From assembly GCA_045638265.1 (NCBI GenBank), contig JAZUBA010000077.1, positions 4,655-68,654 on the forward strand: 64,000 nucleotides of DNA, written 5' to 3'. The position numbers were made by a program, and so were the translations under genes. Origin of the DNA: Alphaproteobacteria bacterium. GTDB taxonomy: Bacteria > Pseudomonadota > Alphaproteobacteria > CAAHEQ01 > UBA3637. Of the stretch, positions 56,434-56,669 are shown piece after piece; position 1 is the stretch's first letter; every line of letters begins with the position of its first letter. The notes under the pieces are model-generated. The model searched no databases and had not been told where the DNA came from. It saw only the letters and a list, made by a program, of their open reading frames with translations.

Positions 56434-56669
56434 TTTACAACCTACACGTACGCACATACGCGTACGCATAAGCGCACGCCTGCACACGCCCACATTCTTT
56501 CAAAAAATTCTTTATTTTTTTTATTATTTAGGGTGCAATTTTTGCACCCTCCCCCCGGTGCAAATTTTGCACCCTTAACACAAGCCTGTGGATAACTCAC
56601 TTTTTTACTTAAAAAACAATACTTTAAATCACGAAAAAACGCCGTTTTTCGTGATTTGCCTGTGGATAA
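56434..56669. promoter_or_regulatory. Putative replication origin of the phage-like element
   Basis: GC-rich iteron-like TACGCA repeats (56441-56495), an A/T tract, palindromes GGGTGCAATTTTTGCACCC (56531-56549) and GGTGCAAATTTTGCACC (56557-56573), perfect DnaA boxes TGTGGATAA at 56587-56595 and 56661-56669, and hairpin CACGAAAAA-acgccg-TTTTTCGTG (56630-56653). Confidence 0.45.

Follow-up and report, generated by a model that had tools for sequence, protein, structure and literature searches.

Replication origins of similar design

Origins composed of repeats bound by a replication initiator (Rep), boxes for the host protein DnaA and an AT-rich tract are textbook. A candidate of this kind was analysed here in 64,000 nucleotides of the contig JAZUBA010000077.1 from an Alphaproteobacteria bacterium (assembly GCA_045638265.1, positions 4,655 to 68,654 of the forward strand), hereafter the window. 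It occupies positions 56440-56681 of the window and lies within an 8.7-kb prophage (8.75 kb, start 48793, end 57540; 35% GC overall). The element is probably a PM2-like (order Vinavirales) circular dsDNA phage of a gut-Alphaproteobacteria group, integrated at the host dif site. With a probability of roughly 0.75, we read the block as the vegetative replication origin of this phage, with sites for its own initiator and for DnaA. An original prediction, made from the sequence alone, had seen an origin-like region here, and its position and layout proved to be conserved in all related elements that could be examined. Less ordinary is the combination of a minimal 95-aa initiator with apparently gained DnaA boxes, and of a conserved open frame and an alternating tract over the origin.

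The closest described initiators are pSK41 Rep and lambda O. The DnaD-like N-terminal domain of pSK41 Rep binds Rep boxes in the centre of the rep gene; the central domain of the protein, encoded by the ori, serves as a linker that can be dispensed with (PMC5703833). Ori-lambda contains four iterons to which lambda O binds, and classical iteron Reps have at least two winged-helix (WH) domains (PMC10797057). Like both systems, the element has repeated sites and a winged-helix domain that is predicted to bind them and weakly resembles the N-terminal domain of DnaD, and PHROG families described as O-like replication initiation match its putative initiator, a 95-aa protein encoded beside the block. 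In the full-length members of the virus family (L006, L018, L019, L009, L013 and L059), the repeats and the AT tract lie centrally in rep, in a variable linker, as in pSK41 and lambda. The window differs from them in that its ORF stops after the N-terminal domain, without a C-terminal host-factor domain, and in that it has two repeats only and added DnaA boxes. Its initiator matches HTH_36 (and weakly DnaD_N), not Pfam RepA_N as in the RepA_N proteins, and unlike lambda the element has no P-like loader.

The order of the parts is that of another set of replicons. RK2 oriV consists of DnaA boxes, iterons and an unwinding element (PMC4980987), and its DnaA boxes serve helicase delivery according to literature cited there. 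For a corticoviral prophage of Vibrio sp. MED222, a pRA2-type RepA and a TTATCCACA box downstream of repA were noted in 2007 (PMC1950889). The succession of boxes, Rep repeats and AT-rich element beside a rep gene is common to the block, RK2 oriV, pSC101, P1 oriR, F oriS and pRA2. RK2-type origins further resemble it in the fixed box orientation and in the reliance on host helicase (PMC4980987), which we infer for the element. In contrast to these origins, the initiator is a single 95-aa winged helix and not a Rep_3/TrfA-type protein with two WH domains, the repeats are palindromic and not plain direct ones, the replicon is a virus genome and an open reading frame extends over the origin. Bacterial oriC likewise has consensus DnaA boxes clustered beside an AT-rich tract; unlike oriC, the block is situated in a prophage at the terminus, has its own putative initiator-binding repeats and lacks a dnaA/dnaN context.

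Gut Vinavirales prophages of Alphaproteobacteria (clade A, HGV groups) were surveyed by Yutin et al. in 2022 (PMC9502842), and the element comes from the same host group. Common to both is the gene order regulator, rep, P14-like factor, ORF h, ATPase, P7 and capsid protein, and the element shares the SleB-type lysin as well. The survey lists 'DnaD-like wHTH initiators' (wHTH, winged helix-turn-helix), does not mention DnaA, describes no origin and calls the integration mechanism unclear (PMC9502842). The origin anatomy and the dif-like junctions given below are additions of the present analysis.

Anatomy of the putative origin

On the gene (minus) strand, the block consists of DnaA boxes, two palindromes, the AT tract and a GC-rich alternating tract. 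The four features of the original prediction, namely a GC-rich alternating block, two palindromes, two exact DnaA boxes and a hairpin, were all recovered in their places and exceed chance by far.

Two perfect DnaA boxes (TTATCCACA) are found on the minus strand, box 2 at 56661..56669 and box 3 at 56587..56595. As predicted, they have the same orientation and are 74 bp (~7 helical turns) apart. Each of them (TGTGGATAA in the plus-strand reading) lies inside a 15-nt perfect direct repeat, GCCTGTGGATAACTC. Box 1, at 56673..56681 on the minus strand and 12 bp from box 2, is degenerate, with one mismatch (TGTTGATAA; gene strand TTATCAACA). All three have one orientation and fall within 95 bp. The 64-kb window contains four perfect boxes, against 0.99 expected; at the window rate, ~0.004 boxes are expected per 236 bp, and the probability of two or more is ~7e-6.

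Two dyad-symmetric repeats of the type GGTGCAA-N3-TTGCACC, the putative initiator-binding iterons, follow at 56530..56573. Palindrome 1 reads AGGGTGCAA-TTT-TTGCACCCT (56530-56550) and palindrome 2 reads GGTGCAAA-T-TTTGCACC (56557-56573). They are 17-19 bp long, with a start-to-start distance of 25 bp, and their pattern is unique in the 64 kb even when up to two mismatches are allowed (0.08 matches expected). A role of the palindromes as intrinsic terminators was rejected: neither strand carries a T-run there, and the search for terminator-like sites gave none.

The putative DNA-unwinding element is an A+T-rich tract of 36 bp with 8% GC (56494..56529), placed between the palindromes and the GC block. 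It is the sixth least stable 40-bp segment of the element, at -39.8 kcal/mol compared with a mean of -49.2 (standard deviation 4.1), a difference of 2.3 standard deviations. The GC-rich block at 56440..56493 (61% GC) holds the most stable 40-bp segment of the whole element, at -64.1 kcal/mol on the nearest-neighbour scale. Within it, a perfect alternating purine/pyrimidine run of 28 nt (56443-56470) is the longest in the 8.7-kb element, the second longest having 12 nt. The block contains TACGCA twice and TACGCG once, and these repeats had been described as iteron-like. They are not the iterons; that role is assigned to the palindromes, which recur with a period of 24-25 nt and co-vary with the initiator. 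The GC block bounds the AT tract, where it may clamp the duplex through its stability or act as a Z-DNA-prone element.

Boxes 2 and 3 are separated by an A-run/T-run inverted repeat at 56626..56657 (arms 56626-56638 and 56645-56657, 6-nt loop). The predicted hairpin is present, with a stem of 13 bp and not of 9 bp; its DNA folding energy is -11.1 kcal/mol (z = -5.3 compared with shuffled sequence). It might bend the DNA, form a cruciform or bind an accessory factor.

Upstream of the initiator gene, at 57035..57063 on the minus strand, the best sigma-70-type match in 55800-57600 (10/12 positions) resembles an early promoter, TTGACA-17-TATGGT. The motif (...GTTCTTGACAAGT...) is kept in three relatives (L001, L003 and L004). 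No terminator-like sites were found from the promoter down to 55800, and transcription starting there would cross the origin block. Scans of the region with Rfam and for tRNAs found nothing, and the DNA of the block had no match in an annotated phage collection.

The putative initiator

According to the original prediction, the element had no Rep gene. This was overturned by the gene at 56710..56997 on the minus strand, whose 95-aa winged-helix product, the putative origin-binding initiator, is a homologue of initiator N-terminal domains. Its length was set from three homologues (P0001-P0003, each 95 aa); an exact-sequence look-up of a 109-aa version of the ORF gave no match, the actual gene having 95 aa. 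In Pfam, the protein matched HTH_36 (E 1.2e-15) and weakly DnaD_N (E 0.019, below its cut-off), and it had no match to RepA_N. A dozen PHROG families (replication initiation, O-like, DnaD-like loader) matched it, always through their N-terminal parts, with E 1e-14 to 1e-9 for those of the replication initiation and O-like types and E 2e-14 for the O-like ones. An exhaustive search gave 133 proteins longer than 130 aa among its 150 best relatives, and in most of these the match is N-terminal; most of the remote homologues have 150-440 aa, with the domain N-terminal. The long Rep of the relative L018 matched phrog_270 over residues 3-191 (E 2e-24). From these homologies, the element appears to have a Rep-like gene reduced to the origin-binding N-terminal domain.

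The structure model, built from a four-sequence alignment, is a winged helix of moderate confidence (predicted local distance difference test, pLDDT, 71). The Foldseek matches to the DnaD N-terminal domain (2v79, E 0.03) and to staphylococcal RepA (5kbj/4pt7, E 0.1-0.25) were weak, and those to Z-alpha (E 0.2) were set aside as generic winged-helix similarity.

Two ways of restoring a longer Rep in the window were rejected. That a 58-aa protein encoded downstream of the block is the detached C-terminal domain of the long Reps was not supported (hhalign probability 1.9%). A programmed frameshift or read-through joining the wHTH ORF to the ORF that overlaps it was discarded because their relative frame varies between lineages: it is +1 in the window, L001, L003 and L045, the two are in the same frame in L015 and L038, and in L003 stop codons lie between them.

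The original prediction had also given the adjacent small helix-turn-helix (HTH) and zinc-ribbon proteins a part in replication. For the HTH protein, involvement in the origin is very likely, judging by its homology. The zinc-ribbon protein showed no tie to replication; it stands at the position of the PM2 P14 transcription factor (PMC9502842), and we take it as the counterpart of P14 by position in the gene order only.

Upstream, a divergent cI/Cro-type HTH gene at 57175..57462 on the plus strand encodes 95 aa (Pfam HTH_19 and HTH_3; PHROG families of transcriptional regulators and repressors). Its product is the probable prophage repressor, which would silence the initiator promoter and hence the origin. 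Between the cI-like and the initiator genes, at 56997-57056, there are two repeats of the type TTTTACTAACC...TTAGTA (TACTAAC-type), which appear to be repressor operators.

Comparison across related elements

About 60 related loci were collected for comparison. Every locus with a wHTH gene had iterons, AT tract and GC-rich tract in this order (at least 15 loci, down to 35% capsid identity). The distant relatives have this layout without DnaA boxes. The module adjoins the wHTH gene, lies inside it or, in L051, is found ~500 nt downstream. Its full form comprises one or more DnaA boxes, two to four dyad repeats with a 24-nt period, an AT tract of 30-50 bp and a GC-rich tract, which is usually alternating. 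The AT-rich tract has the same position in all relatives, and DnaA boxes precede the iterons only in lineages closer to the window.

In 17 loci, 26 perfect boxes were counted in 9.2 kb of blocks and nine in 236 kb outside, which corresponds to 2.83 and 0.038 boxes per kb and a ~74-fold enrichment. The box 9-mer is invariant wherever present and is the most strictly conserved part of the block, and the boxes share short flanks (rAG-TTATCCACA-Gr). Box 1, degenerate in the window, is a perfect TTATCCACA in L001, L004, L037 and L003. The spacing of 72-74 bp recurs in L001, L003, L037, L038 and L045. The inverted repeat between the boxes keeps its stem and varies its loop in L001, L004 and L037; L003, L038 and L045 have weak A-run/T-run equivalents only.

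The iteron sequence is lineage-specific and changes with the recognition helix of the wHTH protein. The half-site GTGCAA goes with the helix RRTAIY in several loci, GTGAAC with RRYAIERM in L015, GTGACAC with KRTVIRNL in L018 and ATGACA with KRTIFRII in L006. L001 has an initiator with 92% identity to that of the window; there, all four half-sites are GTGTAA and not GTGCAA, and the helix is RKSAIS and not KRSAIY. This concerted change in both palindromes fits protein recognition better than a mere hairpin.

A 41-nt core of the GC block is identical in the window, L001, L037 and L003. Other loci (L045, L015, L006, L009/L010, L051 and L055) have GC tracts of the same property and of other sequence; a physical property seems to be conserved rather than the sequence. 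GC-containing alternating runs of 19-31 nt, which are Z-DNA-prone and the longest of their genomes, lie beside the AT tract in many lineages, not in all (window 56443-56470, L045 8324-8360 region, L015 2531-2557 region, L006 ~7020, L009 ~7745).

In relatives as distant as 35-44% capsid identity, a single Rep ORF of 227-269 aa encloses the whole block and carries the wHTH domain N-terminally. The block is in frame with this domain in L006, L018, L019, L009, L013 and L059, and the origin repeats are inside the rep ORF in these six and in L010, L017 and L055. In the window, a stop codon ends the initiator ORF at 56710, before the block. Rep length and the number of perfect DnaA boxes run in opposite directions, a trend carried by few independent lineages: Reps of 227-269 aa (L006, L009, L010, L013, L019 and L059) go with none, the 258-aa Rep of L018 with one, Reps of 199-203 aa (L017 and L055) with two, and Reps of 90-100 aa (the window and nine other loci) with one to four. 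This suggests that DnaA took over a function of the lost C-terminal part of Rep, helicase delivery being one candidate.

A more specific version of this idea is tentative, and we would sooner bet against it than for it. It holds that the window carries a split initiator of the pSK41/lambda-O type, in which the 95-aa domain was kept, the linker persists as a separate open frame and C-terminal host-factor recruitment was handed to DnaA through two to four gained boxes. If true, a phage replicon would here have shifted in nature from initiator-driven to DnaA-assisted helicase loading, and a conserved Z-DNA-prone alternating tract beside the putative unwinding element may add supercoiling-sensitive control. 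The family offers, within one virus family, a graded series from an origin inside a full-length Rep gene to a minimal winged-helix initiator with host DnaA boxes, useful for asking which functions of an initiator can pass to the host.

The open frame over the block

The block had been called non-coding, and an ORF of 105 aa across it almost certainly an artefact. An open frame does run through it on the minus strand (56442..56696), with 84 aa from an ATG or 105 aa from an upstream TTG at 56759. The verdict of an artefact was too strong, since the frame is stop-depleted in every lineage and corresponds to the middle of the Rep gene in distant relatives. Nine loci were compared with local shuffles, and in all of them one frame was stop-depleted (P 0 to 0.04 per locus); this is the frame of the long Reps (R-A-C-A across the GC tract). 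The open frame appears to be inherited from the ori-encoded linker of full-length Rep genes. It is open over the origin in the window (56442-56759, minus strand) and in L001, L003, L038, L045, L015, L005 and L016. The iteron period of 24 nt equals eight codons in most lineages.

Even so, the block would act mainly at the DNA level. Close relatives have frameshifting indels inside the frame (+2 nt in L037; -1, -1, +2 and -3 in L003), and translation would read the DnaA boxes in two codon phases, giving ELST or SYPQ. The 41-nt core is identical at all codon positions, though the flanking protein is 76% identical, and no Pfam or PHROG family matched the product of the frame. Because of these indels, the two box phases, the identical core and the lack of a family match, what is conserved appears to be the DNA motifs and the openness of the frame, and not the amino-acid sequence.

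Homology of the block to a coding sequence, which the original prediction had named as evidence against an origin, was found formally, as the block lies inside the Rep gene of relatives. The origin reading stands all the same, because the origins of pSK41 Rep and lambda O also lie inside the initiator gene (PMC5703833).

The element and its circular relatives

Genes on the minus strand fill ~49.4-57.0 kb of the window. The capsid protein has 290 aa, and its AlphaFold model (pLDDT 92) is a double jelly roll. The top PDB match of the model by Foldseek was PM2 P2 (2vvf_A, E 3.4e-16, template modelling score 0.77/0.82); a sequence profile of the capsid protein searched against PDB sequences did not find PM2 P2, which was recovered by fold comparison alone. 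Adjoining the capsid gene is that of a packaging ATPase (Pfam DUF87, E 2.6e-5, above the Pfam cut-off; phrog_2666, E 7e-21), and a SleB-type lysin is encoded as well. Pfam and PHROG scans of the element proteins found no helicase, loader, primase, polymerase or rolling-circle Rep.

At least 60 capsid homologues were found in metagenome-assembled genomes of uncultured gut Alphaproteobacteria and in many metagenomic contigs of ~8 kb; scanning IMG/VR with the capsid profile gave no relatives. Several contigs had terminal overlaps equal to the k-mer size of the assembler, which identifies them as circular genomes of 7.9-8.3 kb. Among them are L052, which comes from the metagenome ERZ27257207 and has a 90-aa Rep (141-nt overlap), and L017, with a 199-aa Rep (127-nt overlap). 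The circular junction (attP) of the element type in the window occurs in the metagenomic contigs L004 (1-1558) and L037 (2215-2345), the latter from ERR9539573. In both, the two element ends are joined across a single copy of the 19-nt repeat that bounds the prophage, and the 151-aa HTH gene of the left end adjoins the cI-like gene of the right end. The element therefore also exists as a circle, which would need its own origin. These contigs indicate that the phage excises or circulates freely in some samples.

Proposed initiation and rival explanations

Initiation could proceed as follows. Release of the cI-like repressor would let the early promoter (57063-57035) drive the gene of the 95-aa initiator, with transcription continuing through the origin. 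Initiator dimers would bind the two dyad iterons (56530-56573), and host DnaA the three boxes of the same orientation (56587-56681), two of them ~7 helical turns apart with the inverted repeat in between. Jointly, initiator and DnaA would open the 36-bp AT tract (56494-56529) against the most stable segment of the element. DnaA would then deliver the host helicase, and the host replisome would be loaded. Each binding event is deduced from motifs and homology, as are the opening of the tract, the direction in which replication runs and the respective shares of DnaA and initiator. If correct, the tailless phages that are most common in the guts of humans and animals would have a concrete origin/initiator pair, and an 8-kb replicon with a defined origin could seed vectors for uncultured or poorly tractable gut Alphaproteobacteria.

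The origin reading rests on the non-random motifs, the contrast in duplex stability, the conserved layout, the enrichment of boxes in the blocks, the iterons that track the recognition helix and the circular relatives. Several observations weigh against it. The initiator is a single small winged-helix domain without a C-terminal domain, and its structural likeness to DnaD and RepA is weak (E 0.03-0.25, pLDDT 71). The window has two iterons, compared with three to four in distant relatives, and neither the hairpin nor the alternating tract occurs throughout the family. The open frame is kept across the block, so part of the constraint may act on translation.

DnaA also acts as a transcription factor, and the block could be a transcriptional control region, with palindromes as operators that gate early read-through to the structural genes and DnaA boxes that couple it to the DnaA status of the host. 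This role would suit its place, after the first early gene and ahead of the downstream genes, where no terminator is predicted, and dyad sites 25 bp apart are typical of operators. We nevertheless consider it unlikely. The repeats, AT and GC tracts are inside Rep coding sequence in distant relatives, which would be odd for an operator and is the known layout of pSK41-type or lambda-type origins. The repeats co-vary with an initiator-type helix, no strong promoter was found downstream of the block, and the TACTAAC-type repeats of the divergent promoter region seem to serve as the operators of the repressor. There is rather little to be said, too, for a block that is primarily protein-coding, with DNA motifs secondary to an ORF of 84-105 aa. 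Stop depletion in the nine loci fits such a gene, as do a plausible ribosome-binding site and start codon (AAAGGA-N9-ATG in the window, similar in L038 and L045) and the ORF predicted by gene callers in L001, L003, L038 and L045. Against it, indels that are not multiples of three change the encoded sequence completely in those parts between close relatives, the boxes occur in two codon phases, the 41-nt core is constant at all codon positions, the product lacks Pfam and PHROG matches and the ori-encoded peptide of pSK41 is dispensable. Coding would also be compatible with an origin, not exclusive of it.

A relic origin, left after truncation of Rep to its N-terminal domain in an element passively inherited as a prophage, is similarly improbable. 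The initiator does lack the C-terminal domain of its 227-269-aa relatives, two iterons remain and one DnaA box of the window is mismatched. Yet short-Rep lineages that are ~45-50% identical in the wHTH domain keep perfect boxes, paired iterons and the AT tract, the short-Rep genome L052 (90 aa) assembles as a circle with its 141-nt terminal overlap, and the circular junction of the window type was present in two metagenomes (L004 and L037). Hardly any weight is given to the block as a DnaA sink like datA, or as a piece of host oriC that disturbs host initiation. Three boxes of the high-affinity type within 95 bp would suit a sink, but the boxes are always tied to the iteron/AT/GC module and the initiator gene, and distant relatives carry the module without any box; DnaA titration may be a side effect of the boxes. 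The origin of a degraded fragment from host oriC, which the original prediction had allowed for, found no support and was rejected: neither dnaA, dnaN nor other oriC-linked genes are nearby, and the window lies at the maximum of the GC skew, that is, at the terminus and not at the origin of the host chromosome. A vegetative phage origin remains the reading that we prefer for the block.

Integration at dif-like junctions

The element is bounded by a perfect 19-nt direct repeat (48774-48792 = 57522-57540). The left junction, attL, is a dif-like 28-mer at 48765..48792 on the plus strand (TTGTCGCATAA|TTTTTA|TTATGTTAACT), which contains the 19-nt repeat also seen in the attP junctions, and it closely resembles the published dif of A. 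tumefaciens, which is alphaproteobacterial (PMC2731167). The right junction, attR, likewise a dif-like 28-mer, at 57513..57540 on the plus strand (GAGTGATAAAA|TTTTTA|TTATGTTAACT), has a phage-derived left arm and forms the end of the element. The cumulative GC skew has its maximum at ~42-49 kb of the window, near attL, and this maximum is taken to mark the terminus of the host chromosome. No integrase was found among the element proteins by Pfam or PHROG, and no Xer recombinase among the eight window ORFs that were scanned. Because of the dif-like junctions, the phage-derived arm at the right end and the lack of an integrase, the element is probably an integrative mobile element exploiting Xer (IMEX), integrated by host XerCD at the putative site TTGTCGCATAATTTTTATTATGTTAACT. 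The junctions offer an answer to the integration mechanism, which the survey of gut Vinavirales calls unclear (PMC9502842).

On the host side, a perfect DnaA box flanked by AG is found at 48702-48710 on the minus strand (AGTTATCCACA, window 48700-48710), ~56 nt from dif. In alignments, this box is kept together with dif in three host contexts (the window, L045 at ~15300 and L005 at ~11442). It could be a relic of an earlier element.

Further observations

At ~55290 of the window, ~1.7 kb downstream of the wHTH gene, the gene strand carries an AT-type alternating run, GTATATACATAT. Runs of this type, up to TACATATACATATACATATACATA, recur near the ATPase/capsid region in L017, L055 and L019, ~2.2-2.5 kb downstream, and may be part of a late promoter. 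In L055, a gene for an N6/N4 DNA methyltransferase (645-1283) directly follows the 203-aa Rep gene, as a cargo insertion beside the origin module. Host-side ORFs at 37296-38267 (plus strand) and 43135-44007 (minus strand) of the window include a match to the Tad4 (Thoeris inhibitor) domain (E 2e-6, narrowly passing the Pfam cut-off) and a protein with ankyrin repeats; they are unrelated to the origin block.

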